Shown one piece after another: positions 1,400-32,000 of a stretch of DNA of 36,533 nt. Each line of letters starts with the position of its first letter. Positions within the stretch are counted from its first letter, which is position 1. The DNA comes from a virus: UHGV virus genome UHGV-0135234; one strand, 5' to 3'. The notes under the pieces are model-generated. The model was given only the letters and a program-made list of their open reading frames with translations. It was not told the origin of the DNA and made no database searches. Made by a program: the position numbers and the translations under genes.

Positions 1400-2341
1400 T
1401 TACATAGATGTTTCGTTTAATTCTTCCCGACGAACGCTGTAAACGTCGGTGGCTTTTGCCAGCAGTTCGTCATCATCTGAAAGTTTTTGTGCAATGTATT
1501 TGTAAGCCTTATCCAGTTCGGAGACAGTGCTGTAATTCATCGCTGCGCTGGTAAAGGCCATCAGCATTTCTTCTGGATCACGGCTATCCGCTTTACGCGT
1601 TTGCTCATCAGGCTTTTTCACTGGTTTAGCGTTGATCAGACTGTTCATTCCCGCAGCAGTGGTCGTTTGCGGAGTAATGTCTCGCTCAACGCGCGGTGCC
1701 GTTTCCTGTAATTCGTCTGGTGTGTAGACGCCCATGATTACGTCAGGACAGTGCAAGCGAGACCAGCGTTTTGTCGCAAGGTATGCGAGTTGTTGTTTCG
1801 GATCACTGGCCCAAAGTGTGGAGTTTCTTACCTGTGCTTGAGACAGCATTAACTCAAGCACTCGAGGTTGATCCTCGCCCTTCATGGTTGCCCATACGCG
1901 AACACCGCAGCCTTCTTCGTCTTTTAGAGTCCAGCCTGGTGCGATATATGGATTGCCGTTTTTGGATGTTTTCTCAACAAACTTACCGATCACGCGTTCC
2001 CACGGCCCGAACCACTCGTAGTTGATGCGATCTTTTGTTGGCGACATCGTTGAGATAACTGCGTTTACTAATTGGGCTTCATAACCTAGCGTGCCGTTCA
2101 CAACATGGGTTTTCTGAGCCACGGCAAACGGGTTCATTCCCCACTGCGCAGCCTGCATTGCCACGGCCATGCAATCAGCTGGTTTCCCGGCGAGGTGCGC
2201 CGGTACCGTTACGCGGCTTTGCGCCATTACCTCGGCGAATTTCATCAGTTGGTTCAAGCCGTCTGGGCTGAAAATAGTTGCAGCAGTTCCAGCGATTGCT
2301 GTGTCTACTGGTGCGTTGATGTTTACGATGTCGTTGCTCAT
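1400..2341 (-). CDS. recT: RecT-family single-strand annealing recombinase
   Basis: ORF 1400..2368; ATG at 2341 overlaps upstream stop in an ATGA junction. Sequence pattern typical of RecT family. Confidence 0.88.
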   Translation of the reverse strand: MSNDIVNINAPVDTAIAGTAATIFSPDGLNQLMKFAEVMAQSRVTVPAHLAGKPADCMAVAMQAAQWGMNPFAVAQKTHVVNGTLGYEAQLVNAVISTMSPTKDRINYEWFGPWERVIGKFVEKTSKNGNPYIAPGWTLKDEEGCGVRVWATMKGEDQPRVLELMLSQAQVRNSTLWASDPKQQLAYLATKRWSRLHCPDVIMGVYTPDELQETAPRVERDITPQTTTAAGMNSLINAKPVKKPDEQTRKADSRDPEEMLMAFTSAAMNYSTVSELDKAYKYIAQKLSDDDELLAKATDVYSVRREELNETSM

Positions 2342-3159
2342 ATGTACATATCCTGTTTGCGTGCCCACTCATGGCGTTTAATGATTTCCACACCGCCCCA
2401 TTCATCATTGATGCGGCATTCGTGATAGGTATTCAGATCCCGGCGGAACAGAGCGTGCCCGGCATCGACATCCTGCGCATCCAGCTCGAACACGCGTACC
2501 GGATAGCGACCACAATCAATGCTTTCGCTCACGGCAAGAAAGAAAAAACCATGCGGCTGACCAGTAACCCTCATTGCGCCTTCGCGGTACATTGCGTCCT
2601 GCACGTGGTAGCGGAATTCCTCGATGTGGCGTGCAAAACGGTCCATATCTGCAACCTTTTTCACGTCGACGATCACGTTGTGCTCGTTCAGCCATTTGTC
2701 TGGACGAATTCGGCACAACTCACCCGTCTCTTCATCGTTCCAGTACATTGATGCTTCGCAGTAACCAGGTGCTTCCAACATCCAGCGTGCCGCCGGATGA
2801 GCCATTGCGCTATCACGCATCAGCTCCAGTTTCCGCCACTGCTCGGCATCAAGTACCGTAATCCCCATATCCGCCACATCACGAAGAAATGCCTCTTCGT
2901 CAGCTTTACCTTGTTTCGTCCGACGATCGAATTTCGGTGAAACAATGAAGCGTTTGTCGAACTCTCCAGGCTCCAGAAGCAGACAGTGCAATGCGGTTCC
3001 CATATCCAGTGCAGACTTTTTCTCTTCGTCTTCTGGTGCTGCCTGAACCCATTTAAGAAGCGCCGGATTCTTGGCAACCATGTCCAGTTGCGACTTACTC
3101 ACGCCGTCACCGGCGTGGTAGTCTTCGTTGCTGATGTCGAAATAAATTCCCGGTTTCAT
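2338..3159 (-). CDS. RecE-like exonuclease (PD-(D/E)XK, exodeoxyribonuclease VIII C-terminal-type domain)
   Basis: 273 aa, immediately upstream of and translationally coupled to recT; resembles the short RecE nuclease-domain proteins of lambdoid and Rac-like prophages. Confidence 0.75.
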   Translation of the reverse strand: MKPGIYFDISNEDYHAGDGVSKSQLDMVAKNPALLKWVQAAPEDEEKKSALDMGTALHCLLLEPGEFDKRFIVSPKFDRRTKQGKADEEAFLRDVADMGITVLDAEQWRKLELMRDSAMAHPAARWMLEAPGYCEASMYWNDEETGELCRIRPDKWLNEHNVIVDVKKVADMDRFARHIEEFRYHVQDAMYREGAMRVTGQPHGFFFLAVSESIDCGRYPVRVFELDAQDVDAGHALFRRDLNTYHECRINDEWGGVEIIKRHEWARKQDMYI

Positions 3160-3455
3160 GCCGCGTCCCTCTGTCCATCAAGCTGATCCGCCAGATCCCA
3201 GCGGGCGATAATTGCCATTGCCTCTCGCCGATAGGCATCCATCAGTTCTTCGAACTCAGGGCTGTCTTTAGCAGCCTCCAGTACTTCCTGACGAACGCCT
3301 TTGCCTGTTACAACGTCGAAAGTTGAGGACAGTTGATGAAGTCGGATGCTCTCAATCAGTTCAACTTGTCGGTCATATAGCTGTTCTGACAGGCGGTAGT
3401 CCTTGTCGAATGCCAGCATGATTTTTTGAAGATTTTTCTGCTGATTAACGTTCAT
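3156..3455 (-). CDS. hypothetical early protein (racC/gam position)
   Basis: ORF 3156..3470; ATG at 3455 has GGGAGG SD; stop overlaps RecE start (ATGA). No recognisable domain. Confidence 0.5.
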   Translation of the reverse strand: MNVNQQKNLQKIMLAFDKDYRLSEQLYDRQVELIESIRLHQLSSTFDVVTGKGVRQEVLEAAKDSPEFEELMDAYRREAMAIIARWDLADQLDGQRDAA

Positions 3456-3629: not shown

Positions 3630-3644
3630 TTACCGTTGAGGTAA
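3630..3644. promoter_or_regulatory. operator palindrome TTACC-N5-GGTAA (OL-proximal)
   Basis: ttaccgttgaggtaa; overlaps predicted -10/+1 of leftward promoter. Confidence 0.6.
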
Positions 3645-3672
3645 TGATTATGCGTATTTGGTTTGATGTCAA
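3644..3672 (-). promoter_or_regulatory. putative leftward early promoter (pL-like)
   Basis: Minus strand -35 TTGACA (3667..3672), 17-bp spacer, -10 AATCAT; flanked by two operator palindromes. Confidence 0.4.
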
Positions 3673-3691
3673 TAGATATGAGTTAAAAAAA

Positions 3692-3706
3692 TTACCCGTT
3701 AGGTAA
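3692..3706. promoter_or_regulatory. operator palindrome TTACC-N5-GGTAA (OL-distal)
   Basis: ttacccgttaggtaa, perfect inverted repeat. Confidence 0.6.
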
Positions 3707-3763: not shown

Positions 3764-4348
3764 TTATTGTTTATTTTTTTCGTTCTGGTTGATGACAAAT
3801 TCAATGTAACTTTCGATCTTTGCCTTCTCTGTTTCAGGTAACAATGCGTAGCGCGAGCGGTCATAGTTGATAGTCGCGGGGTCGTGCGGGTGAATCAGTA
3901 ATTCATATCCGTGACGCCCAAATGCGGATGCAACATTCTCCAGGGTGGAAATGGAAACGCTGACCTCATTGTTTAACAGGCGGCTGATTGTTACCTGGGC
4001 GACGCCGGATGCGCGGTGAAGTTTTCCCTGCGTTGAAAGGTCGCGGCTTTCGCTCATCCAGCGTTCCAGGTTGTGAGCCGCCAGTTGACCAATGTCGCTT
4101 GGTCCGACAGGCTGAAAACCTTCCTGAGAAAGCGAGCGATCGATATCAAGCCAGTTACGGGGTTTATTGGCGGCAGCTTCAATTTTTCGCGCAACCTGGT
4201 CGCCGATAACCTTCTTGCCAAGAGCCCAGCGGTTTACCAGATTTGCCTGAGTTCCAAGTTTTTCAGCCATCCGCGTCTGAACACCATTGAATTCACGGTC
4301 GATCAAGTCGTTGAGATTTTGCCTGCGGACGTCCTGGATACTTTTCAT
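3764..4348 (-). CDS. phage immunity repressor (CI-like, two HTH domains, no S24 peptidase domain)
   Basis: 194 aa; N-terminal HTH (QTRMAEKLGTQANLVNRWALGKK) and second HTH (RASGVAQVTISRLLNNEVSVSISTLENVA); no LexA-like autocleavage domain; divergent from Cro-like gene with operators between. Confidence 0.75.
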   Translation of the reverse strand: MKSIQDVRRQNLNDLIDREFNGVQTRMAEKLGTQANLVNRWALGKKVIGDQVARKIEAAANKPRNWLDIDRSLSQEGFQPVGPSDIGQLAAHNLERWMSESRDLSTQGKLHRASGVAQVTISRLLNNEVSVSISTLENVASAFGRHGYELLIHPHDPATINYDRSRYALLPETEKAKIESYIEFVINQNEKNKQ

Positions 4349-4403: not shown

Positions 4404-4418
4404 TTACCCAACAGGTAA
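4404..4418. promoter_or_regulatory. operator palindrome TTACC-N5-GGTAA (OR region)
   Basis: ttacccaacaggtaa in divergent repressor/cro intergenic region. Confidence 0.6.
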
Positions 4419-4451
4419 ATGCACCTCATGGGTAACTATCCTTGATTTTTG

Positions 4452-4466
4452 TTACCTTATAGGTGA
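4452..4466. promoter_or_regulatory. operator palindrome, imperfect (TTACC-N5-GGTGA) (OR region)
   Basis: ttaccttataggtga; lies in spacer of putative pR (-35 TTGATT 4442..4447). Confidence 0.45.
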
Positions 4467-12417: not shown

Positions 12418-12615
12418 AATCTCACCTTAAAAAAATGCCCGGCGAACCGGGCGAACTGGAAGCAATGAGTTATGCCTTCCGTGGCTGTACGGGTTTACAG
12501 CATGAAGTCATCGCAATGGCGTCCTGCTGTAAAAAGGGCGGTGATAGTCCTTCAAGGGAAACCATCACCGCCAAGCACCTGGAACTTCTGGCATCACGGT
12601 CCTTAGGCGTGATTC

Positions 12616-12692
12616 TGGCGTGGCATGCAGGATTCGAACCTGCGACCAACCGCTTAGAAGGCGGTTGCTCTGTCCAACTGAGCTAATGCCAC
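12616..12692 (-). tRNA. tRNA-Arg (anticodon UCU)
   Basis: 77 nt GTGGCATTAGCTCAGTTGGACAGAGCAACCGCCTTCTAAGCGGTTGGTCGCAGGTTCGAATCCTGCATGCCACGCCA; 7-bp acceptor stem, D-arm GCTC/GAGC, anticodon loop CTTCTAA, T-loop TTCGAAT, encoded CCA. Confidence 0.9.
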
Positions 12693-29114: not shown

Positions 29115-29528
29115 ATGAAGGAATTATTGCTGTTATCGGTATTTTTGATATCCGCTTGCTCGACATCCTATGATGTTTATGACGGTGTTGATAAGGCATA
29201 TTGCGACAAAGTTAAAATGGATTTTTCTCTTGCCAAGACGGCGAAGGATAGTTGTATTGATCACTACGTCAAGACTTATACCAAGCCAGCCTCATCGGCA
29301 TCTGATATTGCTGAAGGTGCTGTGTTTGAGTGTAACAAGGTGATATCCATCGCAGCGAGTTCTTCATACGATGCTGCTGTATGTGCAATGGCTGAAAGAA
29401 ACGGCATGTCAGTGCAAAAAATTAATAGCATGATAAGCAGTAATGACGAAGCCAAAATAAGAACTGATATCAGCTCGGTGAAAAAAGATGCCATGAACAG
29501 AGTTGTAAAATATCAGTCATCTTTATAA
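29115..29528 (+). CDS. lipoprotein (candidate superinfection-exclusion moron)
   Basis: 137 aa; signal peptide MKELLLLSVFLISAC with lipobox ISAC, Ser at +2; AT-rich; followed by palindrome and terminator. Confidence 0.6.
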   Translation: MKELLLLSVFLISACSTSYDVYDGVDKAYCDKVKMDFSLAKTAKDSCIDHYVKTYTKPASSASDIAEGAVFECNKVISIAASSSYDAAVCAMAERNGMSVQKINSMISSNDEAKIRTDISSVKKDAMNRVVKYQSSL

Positions 29529-29800: not shown

Positions 29801-29821
29801 AAAAAAGCCCGCAGCGCGGGC
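29801..29821 (-). terminator. rho-independent terminator after cargo gene B
   Basis: Minus strand gcccgc-gct-gcgggc followed by TTTTTT. Confidence 0.6.
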
Positions 29822-30261
29822 TATTCTTCTTCATCATTAAAAAGCGGATTGTTGTTTCCATCTGATGAAAGGAAAGGTATGTGTTCTCTTGAAAATCCAA
29901 CAATGACAATTTCATTATCATTTTTTGCATAATGAATGCATTCATTAGAATGCCTTCCGCCAGGGTTGAAATTTAAGTTAATGGTATAATTCTTAAATGT
30001 GTTTGGATACCATGTTGGCCCACAATGATAATGCCAATAATTCTCTTGCTCATAATTGTCTGAGCCGGGAATTTTATCATGGTTATCATCAACCCACGAG
30101 GGCTTGTTTTTTCCAACAAGCGCCCTTCCATTGGCAACATCCTCTAAAAAACTTTGTATGATTTTTATTTCATCATCAGTAAGGAAAGGTCCGTCTACAG
30201 CGAAAGGGGTGTTGCTTTCCCCATGTAGAAAACTATTAGATATTCTAATGTTAAACTTCAA
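29821..30261 (-). CDS. AT-rich cargo protein of unknown function (gene B)
   Basis: ORF 29821..30402 has no internal Met; CAGGAG SD + 6 nt + TTG at 30261 gives 146 aa (MKFNIRISNSFLHGESNTPFAVDGPFLTDDEIKIIQ...NYWHYHCGPTWYP...FNDEEE); upstream 47 codons of the long ORF use rare codons and overlap gene A. Start uncertain. Confidence 0.4.
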   Translation of the reverse strand: MKFNIRISNSFLHGESNTPFAVDGPFLTDDEIKIIQSFLEDVANGRALVGKNKPSWVDDNHDKIPGSDNYEQENYWHYHCGPTWYPNTFKNYTINLNFNPGGRHSNECIHYAKNDNEIVIVGFSREHIPFLSSDGNNNPLFNDEEE

Positions 30262-30281
30262 GGAAAACTCCTGATGTGCTT

Positions 30282-30449
30282 CTATTTGGAGCGAAATGCC
30301 GCCTTGAAGTCGCTGAAAGATGTTCCTGTCTGGTAAACCATATCCTTGTCGCGCTCTTTGCTTGCGCGGCCAAGCATAACTTTTCCAATGACATCCCAGC
30401 ATTGCTTGGCTTGTTCATTGTGCTGAGTACGATTTTTCAACGCTGTCAT
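30282..30449 (-). CDS. small protein (gene A), first gene of operator-controlled cargo operon
   Basis: 55 aa MTALKNRTQHNEQAKQCWDVIGKVMLGRASKERDKDMVYQTGTSFSDFKAAFRSK; AGGAGG SD 6 nt before ATG; host-like codon usage; not in ORF track (<60 aa). Confidence 0.4.
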   Translation of the reverse strand: MTALKNRTQHNEQAKQCWDVIGKVMLGRASKERDKDMVYQTGTSFSDFKAAFRSK

Positions 30450-30461
30450 ATCGCGCCTCCT

Positions 30462-30476
30462 TTACCTTTAAGGTAA
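30462..30476. promoter_or_regulatory. operator palindrome TTACC-N5-GGTAA between promoter and gene A
   Basis: ttacctttaaggtaa immediately upstream of SD. Confidence 0.55.
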
Positions 30477-30504
30477 TAGTACGCTATTCACCCACAGTCT
30501 GCAA
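30476..30504 (-). promoter_or_regulatory. putative promoter of cargo operon
   Basis: Minus strand -35 TTGCAG (30499..30504), 17 bp, -10 TACTAT (30476..30481), then operator. Confidence 0.45.
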
Positions 30505-30548: not shown

Positions 30549-31235
30549 TCAGAAGAACCCAGCCTTGTCGTTGATGTACTCCGCGTGGGTCTGGATATCA
30601 CGCAGGCATTTGCTCACACCAACAATGTAGCAGAACATGGTGGTCAGCTCCGCCGCCGCGCCCGATACGTCGTGCCCGTCTTCCTGTAACTGGTTCAGCA
30701 GATTCATCAGCAGTGAGTTCTCCGTCAGGCCGAGAACACCAGACGGAGAATGAATCAGGCTGCGGTAGCCGGGCTTCAGTGGGGCACTGTAGGTTTTGTT
30801 CTCTATCTTCATTGCCTGCATCACTGCTGATGCTGTGGCGTTGGCTACCTGGTCGGCAACTATCTTTATGCGTTCTTCCTGCGGGAGCGAGTTTTTAATG
30901 TAACTTCCGGTGCGGCGGATCTGAGGAAGAACCTCACCTGTAACCCATTTACGAAAGCGGTAGGGGATAGTGCCTGGTGTCACTGCGTCGCGGCAGCGGA
31001 GGATCAGTGTGTAGAGGCCTGACTCGTTGATAATATTGGTTTCACCTTGACGGCCTAAGTTAAATTTAGCCCTTTCATCATCATCAAGAGATTTTATTGA
31101 CATAGTGGGGTTTGTCAGTTGAAGAGCTTTAATAACGTCTTTGGCAACAAACCAAGGATTTCCATCAATAACAATGGCTCGAATGGTGGCTTCTGATTCA
31201 AAATGAAAAACAGATGGGGTTACGTTAGCAGTCAT
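30549..31235 (-). CDS. Bro-N domain antirepressor-like protein
   Basis: ORF 30549..31388; ATG at 31235 (MTANVTPSVFHFESEATIRAIVIDGNPWFVAKDVIKALQL... classic Bro-N N-terminus); AAGGTGA SD; upstream extension is a structured leader. Confidence 0.8.
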   Translation of the reverse strand: MTANVTPSVFHFESEATIRAIVIDGNPWFVAKDVIKALQLTNPTMSIKSLDDDERAKFNLGRQGETNIINESGLYTLILRCRDAVTPGTIPYRFRKWVTGEVLPQIRRTGSYIKNSLPQEERIKIVADQVANATASAVMQAMKIENKTYSAPLKPGYRSLIHSPSGVLGLTENSLLMNLLNQLQEDGHDVSGAAAELTTMFCYIVGVSKCLRDIQTHAEYINDKAGFF

Positions 31236-31388
31236 AGTGATCACCTTTGTAGTTAGGTTAATCACCACTACCGACGCCAATCGGTTGGTGGTGAACTGTG
31301 CAGGGTTGGCGTAACCGGCTACAAAGGACCCGGCGCACCTTTCGGTGCCCCCACACAGCCCACCATAGAATAGGTGCGCTTTACACAT

Positions 31389-31408
31389 AAAAAAACCGCT
31401 TATGCGGC
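31389..31408 (-). terminator. intrinsic terminator/attenuator in Bro leader
   Basis: Minus strand gccgc-ataa-gcggu followed by seven U. Confidence 0.45.
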
Positions 31409-31501
31409 ATATGTGCCTCTGTAGTAACCCGGGACGCCAATCCCGGCACTGGATTTTGCCAGTGCCCGATTACTATGGCACAAGAGGAGTGCGATGTAAA
31501 T

Positions 31502-31516
31502 TTACCGAAAAGGTAA
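31502..31516. promoter_or_regulatory. operator palindrome TTACC-N5-GGTAA
   Basis: ttaccgaaaaggtaa directly downstream of putative Bro promoter. Confidence 0.55.
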
Positions 31517-31544
31517 TAATAAACACTCTACTTGGTAATTGCAA
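31516..31544 (-). promoter_or_regulatory. putative promoter for Bro-N gene
   Basis: Minus strand -35 TTGCAA (31539..31544), 17 bp, -10 TATTAT (31516..31521); same architecture as gene A promoter. Confidence 0.4.
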
Positions 31545-31547
31545 ACC

Positions 31548-31805
31548 TTATCTGGTTTGTTTTCGTAATTGTTCGGCACAATAGTCGAGATGTGTTTGCA
31601 GATCCCGCATAGACATCTGTGAGCTGGTGACGTAGTTAATCAGTGCAGTCAGTTCGGCAAGTGGGCCATCGACATTAAATCCATCCTTATCGAGATCCCG
31701 GAGTAATTTCATCAAGTGCGATCCCTCCACCAGTGACCTGACGCCTCCCGGCGTGTGAATCCTTTCGGTAAATCCGTCTTCCAGTGGATAGTGATACTGC
31801 TGCAT
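31548..31805 (-). CDS. small antirepressor-domain protein, paralog of Bro C-terminal domain; LexA-box controlled
   Basis: ORF 31548..31823 (TTG); ATG at 31805 gives 85 aa with GGAG SD; aligns with C-terminus of 30549..31235 protein (IH(S/T)P.GV..L.E.S.LM.LL..L..DG..V.G..AELT...RD.QTH..Y). Confidence 0.55.
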   Translation of the reverse strand: MQQYHYPLEDGFTERIHTPGGVRSLVEGSHLMKLLRDLDKDGFNVDGPLAELTALINYVTSSQMSMRDLQTHLDYCAEQLRKQTR

Positions 31806-31826
31806 CTTATCTTCTCCATGCAATAA

Positions 31827-31842
31827 CTGTATATTTATACAG
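31827..31842. promoter_or_regulatory. LexA box (SOS operator) CTGTATATTTATACAG
   Basis: Perfect CTGT-N8-ACAG with AT-rich spacer; 10 nt upstream of SD of the 85-aa gene. Confidence 0.75.
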
Positions 31843-31881
31843 TATCAAATAATTTGTTTGCTATCCAGCACGTTTTGCAAA

Positions 31882-31896
31882 TTACCCGAAAGGTAA
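31882..31896. promoter_or_regulatory. operator palindrome TTACC-N5-GGTAA
   Basis: ttacccgaaaggtaa between 85-aa gene and divergent tailspike. Confidence 0.55.
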
Positions 31897-32000
31897 TATC
31901 TATTCGTATTTACAGTCTTTCTATCCATATGTGGTTTTTCAGGTAATAGAATAACCAGATATGCGGCGCAACGGGTGCTGCGACTATCTGGAGATTTAAC

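Follow-up and report, generated by a model that had tools for sequence, protein, structure and literature searches.

A predicted LexA-controlled antirepressor of the SPC32H type, paired with a repressor lacking an S24 domain, in an epsilon15-like Escherichia coli phage

The window analyzed here, a stretch of 36,533 nucleotides (UHGV virus genome UHGV-0135234), comes from an epsilon15-like E. coli phage (Uetakevirus, phiV10-type). One of its loci is, with a probability that we place at roughly 0.88, the induction arm of a lysis-lysogeny switch of the epsilon15/SPC32H type, in which a LexA-controlled antirepressor (Ant) disables a non-cleavable repressor (Rep). The two proteins are orthologous to the crystallized SPC32H pair, the LexA box is of high quality and is conserved, and Rep has no S24 domain. 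By analogy with SPC32H, LexA control, Ant-Rep binding, and disassembly of the Rep tetramer are likely to hold for the E. coli pair as well. The core of the original prediction, an SOS-derepressed antirepressor set against a non-cleavable repressor, stands on this orthology and on the conserved box. It was presented as new, however, and the circuit has already been characterized genetically and structurally in Salmonella phage SPC32H (Kim and Ryu, J Virol 2013; Kim et al., PNAS 2016; PDB 5D50 and 5D4Z). The ant region contains the following elements, where A1 is an alignment of the region upstream of ant.

31548..31805, minus strand: ant, encoding the 85-aa antirepressor, an ortholog of SPC32H Ant (tblastn, PDB match, phrog_450)
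31813..31817, minus strand: Shine-Dalgarno sequence GGAGA of ant, kept in most phages of A1
31825..31844, no strand assigned: LexA box, 18/20 consensus match, 27.3 bits, kept in 9 Uetakeviruses
31839..31867, minus strand: candidate ant promoter found by eye, with -35 TGGATA (31867..31862), a 17-nt spacer, and -10 TACTGT (31844..31839)
31881..31897, no strand assigned: predicted Rep operator upstream of the ant promoter, a 17-bp palindrome (ATTACC-N5-GGTAAT) that is invariant in A1

The ant reading frame runs on the minus strand from an ATG at 31805..31803 to a stop codon at 31550..31548. Its product is 86.7% identical to SPC32H Ant by tblastn (KC911856, SPC32H_020), matches chain E of PDB 5D50 over residues 2-84 (E=1.4e-46), and is assigned to phrog_450. 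A Pfam scan of this protein (E<=0.1) yields no family, and a sub-threshold match to DUF724 was put down to chance. All Uetakeviruses examined carry the small ant gene, and Rep and Ant occur in largely coinciding sets of 35-37 phage records, almost all of them Uetakevirus. The best 120 matches in a wide protein search with Ant comprise only stand-alone enterobacterial proteins of ~85-127 aa; fused forms are absent from these 120 and came from tblastn and alignment. The circuit had originally been assigned to the Tum/Gifsy type. In the 85-aa protein, Pfam detects neither a DinI nor a Tum-type domain, and none of the PHROG families matched is labeled as belonging to Gifsy antirepressors. The family is that of SPC32H Ant, and the resemblance to Tum, and probably that to Gifsy, is functional only.

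A second, larger antirepressor gene lies beyond ant on the same strand and is preceded by an RNA cassette that the original prediction had missed. A3 is the alignment of six such cassettes.

31502..31516, no strand assigned: operator-like palindrome before the cassette, kept in the 6 cassettes of A3
31472..31500, minus strand: promoter-like site TTTACA-17-CATAGT with an upstream TG and a predicted start at ~31465
31389..31465, minus strand: IsrK-type small RNA with decoy targets a1 (31440..31434) and b1 (31424..31416), ending in an intrinsic terminator (31408..31395) and a U-run
31284..31370, minus strand: C4 antisense RNA with loop b' CCTTTGTAG (31327..31319) and loop a' ACGCCAA (31312..31306)
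31244..31280, minus strand: C4 targets a2 (31280..31274) and b2 (31252..31244)
30549..31235, minus strand: large antirepressor, 228 aa, with a Bro-N domain (residues 18-104) and an Ant-like C-terminal domain (residues 147-224)

The large gene is correctly read from a start at 31235. Its N-terminal domain is Bro-N (PF02498, E=5.4e-20, 72 bits against a cut-off of 25.6 in Pfam), and its Ant-like domain (coordinates 30564..30797) is 41% identical to the 85-aa protein (E=2e-16), which bears out the proposed paralogy between the two. The C-terminus of the Bro-N protein also matches 5D50_E (E=1e-13). PADLOC assigns no defence system to Ant, the Bro-N protein, or three neighboring small ORFs. The large gene is an accessory module that is missing from SPC32H, epsilon15, and BUCT554, and its N-terminal domain is swappable. 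The notion that the circuit is split between a short paralog and a full Bro-N protein therefore does not hold, since only ant is present in every Uetakevirus examined.

Judging from these predicted elements, the Bro-N gene is under separate control through an operator-like palindrome, a promoter, and two RNAs, one IsrK-like and the other of the C4 antisense type. The palindrome abuts the -35 element of the IsrK-type promoter and the -10 element of an upstream promoter-like site, and TTGTGCCATAGT within the promoter-like site at 31472..31500 is invariant in A3. The IsrK-type RNA scores 74.7 bits against Rfam RF01394 (gathering score 50), and RF03163 (c4-a1b1) reaches 44.1 bits, slightly below its gathering score of 46.7. 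A terminator scan places the intrinsic terminator at the end of this RNA and finds none between ant and the cassette. The C4 RNA matches the full RF01695 model (1-87) with 79.5 bits (gathering score 45). In the window, a' and a2 form 7/7 Watson-Crick pairs and b' and b2 form 9/9, and b2 covers the Shine-Dalgarno sequence AAGGTGA (31247..31241) of the large antirepressor gene. Three-way compensatory changes link a1/a'/a2 and b1/b'/b2, such that all six phage cassettes are 100% paired even though they carry three a-types and three b-types. These pairs were counted by script, as the MAFFT alignment A3 misplaced one gap in the b elements of phiv142-3.

Among the window ORFs, there is no icd-like separate gene with its own stop codon between the C4 RNA and the Bro-N gene. 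The frame is open from an ATG at 31388 into the Bro-N gene, which gives a 51-codon in-frame extension upstream of the 31235 start. Both this extension and a CDS annotated as 'ash family protein' in phage ZX5 overlap the C4 RNA, and Pfam returns nothing for either. They probably represent an over-annotated RNA gene, and an upstream ORF like orf45 is possible.

The existence of a second protein with an Ant-like domain raises the alternative that the inducer in this E. coli lineage is a protein other than the small Ant. The Bro-N/Ant-C protein would then be the working antirepressor, and the 85-aa protein would be a modulator, for example through mixed oligomers with the Ant-like domain, or would target the repressors of other resident prophages. 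Mixed assemblies are conceivable because Ant is reported to be tetrameric (PMC9638917), and trans-acting antirepressors are known in Gifsy phages (PMC7380047). Rep has diverged to 42% identity with SPC32H Rep, to which it is homologous over its full length, whereas Ant has stayed at 87%, so that conservation of the interface is an assumption. The lineage's only experiment also concerns the Bro-N protein. The 'anti-repressor' ORF4 of E. coli phage vB_EcoP_ZX5 is 83% identical to the Bro-N protein of the window and has the same C-terminus, and passages of the ZX5 paper (PMC9782041) describe how its overexpression shifts the phage toward lysis, with less lysogeny and a drop in prophage titres from 10^9 to 10^6. 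We nevertheless regard this alternative as unlikely. The Rep of the window is 100% identical to the repressors of phiV10 and ZX5, yet in phiV10 the large gene is truncated within the Ant-like domain while ant and its LexA box are intact. Genus-wide, ant and rep occur together and the large gene is often missing. Finally, a weight-matrix scan of the window finds no LexA box between ant and the Bro-N gene, which leaves ant alone with such a box, and the ZX5 lysogen is mitomycin-C inducible, with 10^7 to 10^9 PFU/mL (PMC9782041).

The target of Ant under the preferred SPC32H-type reading is the immunity repressor, which lies far from ant together with several of the palindromes.

3764..4348, minus strand: rep, encoding the immunity repressor (194 aa), which has two HTH-type domains but lacks an S24 domain (Pfam, PDB)
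3630..3706, no strand assigned: a pair of operator palindromes at 3630..3644 and 3692..3706 (62 bp apart), lying downstream of rep and ahead of the leftward early genes
4404..4466, no strand assigned: operator palindromes in the rep/cro intergenic region, of which 4404..4418 is perfect and 4452..4466 has one mismatch
30462..30476, no strand assigned: third operator-like palindrome, just upstream of the RBS of a 55-aa ORF
30282..30449, minus strand: the 55-aa ORF, whose RBS lies just downstream of this palindrome

As originally stated, the repressor has HTH domains and lacks an S24 peptidase. Pfam reports only HTH families in Rep, with HTH_3 in two stretches (best residues 106-147) and a YdaS-type HTH at residues 21-61, and it does not find Peptidase_S24. 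Rep matches chain A of PDB 5D50, which is SPC32H Rep, over residues 1-190 (E=4e-42), and its residues 89-190 match 5D4Z, the crystallized tetramerization and Ant-binding domain. It is consequently very unlikely that Rep is inactivated by RecA-stimulated self-cleavage in the manner of lambda, with Ant as an accessory anti-immunity function in the manner of P22. SPC32H Rep is reportedly not cleaved. The missing S24 domain and a C-terminal half that is HTH-type and homologous to 5D4Z argue against cleavage here too, even though the case of P22, which has an antirepressor and yet is SOS-inducible without it, gives the idea some precedent (PMC7380047).

The ATTACC-N5-GGTAAT palindrome is predicted to be the Rep operator on the basis of GenBank annotation and its distribution. 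The window contains 10 copies of TTACC-N5-GGTAA against 0.03 expected. SPC32H also has 10 copies of the palindrome, mostly at syntenic places, and the window copies at 3630..3644 and 3692..3706 are syntenic with SPC32H 33528/33604/33666. Sites at the corresponding places in epsilon15 (GenBank AY150271.2) are annotated as 'protein_bind: repressor'. Next to the third operator-like palindrome, a candidate promoter (TTGCAG-17-TACTAT at 30504..30476) can be made out by eye.

The sequence CTGTATATTTATACAG at 31827..31842 forms the CTGT-N8-ACAG core of a LexA (SOS) box, just as the original prediction described it. The 20-mer at 31825..31844, AACTGTATATTTATACAGTA, agrees with the E. coli LexA consensus TACTGTATATATATACAGTA at 18/20 positions. 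Potential LexA sites in the window were ranked by a weight matrix derived from 18 E. coli SOS boxes. The box scores 27.3 bits, which is more than any training site (maximum 26.4), and the second-ranked site in the window has 13.9 bits. The top score among 200 shuffles of the window is 20.4 bits, or ~7 bits lower. CTGT-N8-ACAG occurs three times in the window against 0.49 expected. The copies at 12485 and 17034, which have GC-rich spacers, were dropped as LexA sites on their weight-matrix scores (9.9 bits for one, and below the top ten sites for the other).

In A1, the box is kept at the same position in 9 Uetakeviruses, and across hosts its position and sequence are conserved while the flanks vary; its left half-site is degenerate (ATGT) in the Klebsiella relatives. 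The boxes of the window and SPC32H align column for column. Within the ant region, SPC32N differs from SPC32H by one base, a C to A change in the right half-site of the box (CAG to AAG) that alters a consensus base, and this mutation is said to make Ant constitutive. An AT-rich, promoter-like spacer, the three matches in the window, and the degenerate Klebsiella half-site could suggest that the palindrome is an AT-rich inverted repeat that arose by chance, or simply part of a promoter, and that the 85-aa ORF is SOS-independent, but the score relative to training sites and shuffles, the conservation of the box between variable flanks, and the position of the SPC32H/SPC32N difference make this exceedingly improbable.

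The -10 hexamer of the candidate ant promoter overlaps the LexA box, as judged by eye, and TGCTGGATAG and TACTGT are conserved blocks of A1. A sigma-70 consensus scan of the window does not call this promoter, whose hexamers are weak, and their assignment here is putative and drawn from conservation. The GGAGA at 31817..31813 follows the box by ~9 nt, which agrees with the original placement of the box just upstream of the Shine-Dalgarno sequence of this minus-strand gene.

If the circuit operates as in SPC32H, then Rep would keep the phage promoters shut in the lysogen by way of the ATTACC-N5-GGTAAT operators, and host LexA would occupy the SOS box at 31825..31844, which overlaps the ant promoter at its -10 element and start region. 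Once DNA damage had activated RecA, LexA would cleave itself, and ant would be transcribed. The 85-aa Ant would then bind the C-terminal domain of Rep and break up the DNA-binding Rep tetramer with Rep remaining uncleaved, so that the operators would be vacated and the lytic genes turned on. This order of events matches a review that cites Kim and Ryu 2013 among others, in which SOS and LexA self-cleavage lead to production of an antirepressor that inhibits the repressor (PMC7380047), and the disassembly of the Rep tetramer by tetrameric Ant has been described (PMC9638917).

The Bro-N/Ant-C gene may be transcribed from the promoter that adjoins the Rep-type operator. The C4 RNA could pair with the RBS of this gene and block its translation, in the manner of P1 immI and the isrK locus of Gifsy-1. 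The Bro-N/Ant-C protein presumably targets the same Rep, either after Rep control has been lifted or on infection. With no terminator between ant and the cassette, some transcription from the LexA-controlled ant promoter could also run on into the Bro-N module.

A tentative extension of this model is that E. coli and Enterobacter Uetakeviruses possess a two-stage switch, in which two antirepressors with one shared Rep-binding (Ant) domain respond to different inputs. We consider this possible rather than probable. The small Ant would be gated by LexA and would start induction, and the large protein, with an exchangeable N-domain (Bro-N or another), would be gated by the Rep operator and by a C4 RNA whose pairing type is specific to each phage. 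If this is true, then the large protein might provide a positive-feedback lock once the first Rep molecules are gone or serve as an anti-immunity weapon on superinfection, and the stages could be connected by read-through that carries transcripts of the ant promoter into the a1/b1 decoy region.

The mechanism is of a known kind and opens nothing new in principle. There is modest novelty in two antirepressors that share one repressor-binding domain, the larger of which is under a C4 antisense RNA, and an Ant-like domain behind a covarying IsrK/C4 cassette and an operator may interest researchers of prophage cross-talk and switch design. The practical value lies in annotating the 85-aa gene as an SPC32H-type Ant. 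It is a 'hypothetical protein' in the RefSeq E. coli matches listed and in most of the phage records listed, and the locus is present in at least 234 of 5,426 complete E. coli genomes. An SPC32H-type Ant with a top-grade LexA box would explain how phiV10-like prophages are mitomycin-inducible despite a repressor that is unable to cut itself.

Among known systems, SPC32H is also a Uetakevirus, and its LexA box is equally far from ant. SPC32H and epsilon15 share the gene order of the window, with an injection-protein gene, ant on the opposite strand, and the tailspike gene, and SPC32H likewise has ATTACC-N5-GGTAAT upstream of ant and at early promoters. In SPC32H, a hairpin and a convergent membrane-protein gene directly follow ant and there is no second antirepressor, whereas in the window, from an E. 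coli phage, ant is followed by the IsrK/C4 cassette and the Bro-N/Ant-C gene with no terminator between. ZX5 is closer still, with an Ant 98.8% identical to that of the window, and its record annotates the small ant gene as hypothetical. The searched passages of the ZX5 paper (PMC9782041) do not mention LexA or SPC32H.

The antirepressors Tum of coliphage 186 and Fels-2, GfoA/GfhA of the Gifsy phages, and AntC of N15 share the logic of a LexA box on the antirepressor promoter, an uncleaved repressor, and inactivation by protein-protein contact (PMC7380047; PMC3121763). The Pfam and PHROG matches of the Ant of the window reveal no sequence relationship to them. SPC32H Ant is said to be structurally distinct from the Tum, Gifsy, and AntC antirepressors. 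The isrK-orf45-anrP locus of Gifsy-1 resembles the cassette in having an IsrK-type RNA and terminator upstream of an antirepressor-like gene, and its mRNA consists of transcripts that read through the IsrK terminator (Hershko-Shalev et al. 2016, PMC4825925). In Gifsy-1, however, the short IsrK activates translation via a 45-codon upstream ORF, and the window lacks a distinct upstream ORF that is closed by a stop codon.

The immI region of P22 (ant, mnt, arc, and sar RNA) similarly places an antirepressor region just before the tailspike gene and under partial antisense-RNA control. The P22 repressor C2 is RecA-cleavable. No Mnt or Arc homologs were seen in the window, and its antisense RNA is of the C4 type, unlike the sar RNA of P22. 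The P1/P7 immI operon (c4, icd, ant) has a C4 RNA whose a' and b' loops pair with upstream a1/b1 and downstream a2/b2, with b2 over an RBS and with pairing specificities that covary between phages, as they do here. The cassette promoter of P1 has an operator for the primary repressor, Op51, to which the operator-like palindrome of the window is comparable. In contrast to P1 and P7, the window has no icd-like gene, and b2 covers the RBS of the antirepressor itself. This antirepressor combines Bro-N with an Ant-like domain, in place of the Ant1/2 of P1, and a LexA-controlled antirepressor adjoins it.

The sequence upstream of ant contains an unusually strong LexA site. As the original prediction had it, CTGTATATTTATACAG sits at 31827..31842, and the 20-mer that encloses it (31825..31844) agrees with the LexA consensus TACTGTATATATATACAGTA in 18 of its 20 bases. 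With a weight matrix trained on 18 E. coli SOS boxes, this box scores 27.3 bits, higher than all of the training sites. The second-best site in the window reaches 13.9 bits, and the best score in 200 shuffles was 20.4. Two other CTGT-N8-ACAG sequences, at 12485 and 17034, have low matrix scores and are rejected as chance matches. The 85-aa gene claimed to lie behind the box (ant) is present on the minus strand, with its ATG at 31805, its stop at 31548 and a GGAGA 9 nt past the box.

Alignment A1 compares the stretch ahead of ant in nine phages, whose hosts are E. coli, Salmonella, Enterobacter and Klebsiella. In it the box (TAC-TGTAT....ATACAGT) keeps its position and its flanking bases are variable. 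The left half-site is weaker in both Klebsiella phages, and SPC32N differs from SPC32H by a CAG to AAG change in the right half-site. Kim and Ryu are said to have found in 2013 that Ant is constitutive in SPC32N owing to one altered base within the LexA site. Further conserved blocks are TGCTGGATAG and, 17 nt on, TACTGT. These are candidate -35 and -10 elements of an ant promoter in which the -10 would overlap the LexA box; a simple consensus promoter scan did not call an ant promoter.

Ant is 86.7% identical in tblastn to the gene of the Salmonella phages SPC32H and SPC32N annotated 'ant: anti-repressor protein', and it matches PDB 5D50 chain E ('Anti-repressor protein') with E=1.4e-46. The repressor gene rep (3764..4348), likewise encoded on the minus strand, diverges from a cro-like gene. 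Pfam places HTH_3 (two stretches) and a YdaS-type HTH (residues 21-61) in Rep and finds no S24 peptidase, in agreement with the proposed two-HTH repressor without that domain. The SOS response reportedly left SPC32H Rep uncleaved in the 2013 work of Kim and Ryu. Full-length Rep of the window matches 5D50 chain A ('Repressor', E=4e-42), and its C-terminal half also matches 5D4Z; it shares 42% identity with SPC32H Rep. Homologues of Rep and of Ant turn up in nearly identical sets of 35-37 phage records, almost all from Uetakevirus. The system is the one described by Kim and Ryu (J Virol 2013) and by Kim et al. (PNAS 2016). An antirepressor of this kind is made after SOS induction and LexA self-cleavage and inactivates the repressor through protein-protein contact (PMC7380047). 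Tetrameric Ant breaks the DNA-bound Rep tetramer by engaging two Rep dimers (PMC9638917).

Rep and Ant diverge at very unequal rates between host groups. Identities to the window proteins are 42% (Rep) and 83-87% (Ant) in Salmonella phages, 45% and 60-64% in Klebsiella phages, and 75-78% and 78-86% in Enterobacter phages. Either a small conserved Ant-contact patch on Rep or reassortment of both loci could explain this pattern. With Rep at 42% and Ant at 87% between the window and Salmonella, conservation of the contact surface is consequently an assumption.

The region of the finding is 93-97% identical in DNA sequence to epsilon15-like podophages (genus Uetakevirus), including phiV10, TL-2011b, phiv142-3, vB_EcoP_ZX5 and HEMP4. 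Its genes are arranged as in phiV10 and SPC32H, with the gene for a large injection-type protein followed by opposite-strand genes and then the tailspike. At least 80% of 30549..31900 is present in at least 234 of 5,426 complete E. coli genomes. A tRNA-Arg gene (anticodon TCT; 12616..12692, minus strand) has a counterpart at the same position in SPC32H.

The palindrome TTACC-N5-GGTAA is a predicted Rep operator. The window holds 10 exact copies (0.03 expected), or 12 when one mismatch is allowed (0.67 expected).

Copies of TTACC-N5-GGTAA in the window, with up to one mismatch: 3630, 3692, 4404, 4452, 6735, 6797, 9846, 9864, 13022, 30462, 31502, 31882

These sites fall between rep and cro, downstream of rep, ahead of the endonuclease gene of the replication region, and ahead of the terminase and portal genes; three (31882, 31502 and 30462) are in the ant region. 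SPC32H has 10 copies, most of them syntenic and one upstream of ant, and the GenBank record of epsilon15 annotates the corresponding places as 'protein_bind: repressor'. This distribution, the SPC32H synteny and the epsilon15 annotation suggest direct repressor control of the whole genome, late genes included. A palindrome stands before nearly every transcription unit, terminase and portal among them, and two pairs (3630/3692 and 6735/6797) have a spacing of exactly 62 bp. Toward the tailspike, the ant control region has an invariant block, GGTAATAGAAT (31940..31960; A1 columns 9-38), made up of an operator half-site followed by a -10-like hexamer, TAGAAT. The region also has a conserved CATATA..GGTT motif, and epsilon15 carries an annotated IHF site there. 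This region may contain a tailspike promoter under repressor or IHF control.

The neighboring 228-aa Bro-N protein starts at 31235, not at the first ATG of its ORF, and has a clear Bro-N domain. Its C-terminal domain is a paralog of Ant, as proposed: Ant aligns to residues 147-224 with 41% identity (E=2e-16), and the C-terminal ~80 residues match 5D50_E (E=1e-13). All factual elements of the original prediction (box, ant, paralogy and repressor) are thus confirmed from sequence, matrix, alignment and Pfam. The Ant-like C-terminal domain also occurs in two other Bro-N proteins, ZX5 ORF4 and Tyrion gp20. In phiv142-3 Orf8 (1850..2506 of locus L010) it is attached to an unrelated N-terminal domain, and the phiv142-3 RNA cassette is of another C4 pairing type (a = TTGGTCT, b = CTAAGTGG). 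Judged by these comparisons, the large-antirepressor module is built from exchangeable parts. In the phiV10 copy (PhiV10p23, 2607..3191 of locus L001) a frameshift midway through the Ant-like domain shortens the protein; the gene's upstream IsrK/C4 cassette is intact. The module is wholly absent from SPC32H, epsilon15 and BUCT554, which makes the small ant the fixed component across the genus and the large gene an accessory. The predicted antirepressor circuit therefore stands insofar as the LexA box, Ant and Rep match the SPC32H system, but not as a function split between the two genes.

ZX5 has a Rep identical to that of the window, and its record lists the small ant as 'hypothetical'. The passages of the ZX5 paper that were searched (PMC9782041) report that overexpression of ORF4 lowers prophage titres from 10^9 to 10^6 and that the lysogen is mitomycin-C inducible (10^7 to 10^9 PFU/mL), and these passages mention neither LexA nor SPC32H.

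The 313 bases that separate ant from the Bro-N gene contain two Rfam families above their gathering scores.

IsrK/C4 cassette
31465..31389, minus strand: IsrK-type RNA (Rfam, 74.7 bits)
31408..31395, minus strand: intrinsic terminator ending the IsrK-type RNA
31370..31284, minus strand: C4 antisense RNA (Rfam, 79.5 bits)

A c4-a1b1 target motif scores slightly below its Rfam threshold. C4 loop b' (CCTTTGTAG) has its full complement, CTACAAAGG, at 31252..31244, a site covering the Shine-Dalgarno sequence of the Bro-N gene, and loop a' (ACGCCAA) has its complement, TTGGCGT, at 31280..31274. Both targets are duplicated upstream, within the IsrK-like RNA. The three element sets covary in six phages (three a-types and three b-types) with all duplexes 100% paired, and one b-type has a one-base deletion shared by all three copies. 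Covariation with complete pairing argues strongly, on comparative grounds, for a functional antisense interaction. Ahead of the cassette stands an invariant promoter-like site, TTTACA-17-CATAGT, which abuts the operator palindrome at 31502..31516. More than 200 phage records, chiefly of Stx phages and also of APSE, hold the cassette at ~75% identity without that operator. The weight-matrix scan found no LexA-like site between ant and the Bro-N gene, and so gives no sign of LexA control over the latter. No terminator was found between the ant stop and the cassette, so a fraction of transcription from the ant promoter may run on into it.

The Bro-N frame is open for 51 codons further upstream, across the C4 RNA to an ATG at 31388 (31236..31388, minus strand), and ZX5 has a 37-aa 'ash family protein' annotated over its C4 RNA (1779..1892 of locus L012, minus strand). 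Neither has a Pfam match. Here an RNA gene has probably been mistaken for a coding sequence, or else this is an upstream ORF resembling orf45 or icd.

Beyond the Bro-N gene is a low-GC stretch (0.37-0.40) at 29821..30449 on the minus strand.

ORFs of the low-GC stretch
within 29821..30449, minus strand: 55-aa ORF, phrog_8607
within 29821..30449, minus strand: overlapping ORF of up to 193 aa, phrog_5954 at residues 49-189

The stretch is equipped with an operator-like palindrome (30462..30476) and a terminator (29822..29806) of its own, and its ORFs have no Pfam or PADLOC match. It resembles a moron that varies from one related phage to another. A 137-aa ORF at 29115..29528 on the plus strand (phrog_8691), with a lipoprotein-like N-terminus (LISAC), replaces the small membrane protein gene of phiV10 and SPC32H.

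If the SPC32H mechanism carries over by orthology, LexA would keep ant shut until its removal upon DNA damage. Ant would then bind the C-terminal domain of Rep and draw the Rep tetramer off its operators, and the lytic promoters would open. We infer that the cassette promoter, if it is Rep-controlled, would open as well, with C4 limiting translation of the large antirepressor. The pairing of ant with a C4-controlled antirepressor that carries a paralogous Ant domain is not described in the literature searched; its parts are known. The cassette resembles the immI c4-icd-ant operon of P1 and the isrK-orf45-anrP locus of Gifsy-1 (PMC4825925), and the circuit, with an ant still annotated as hypothetical, is an E. 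coli relative of the known SPC32H system, which has a crystal structure.
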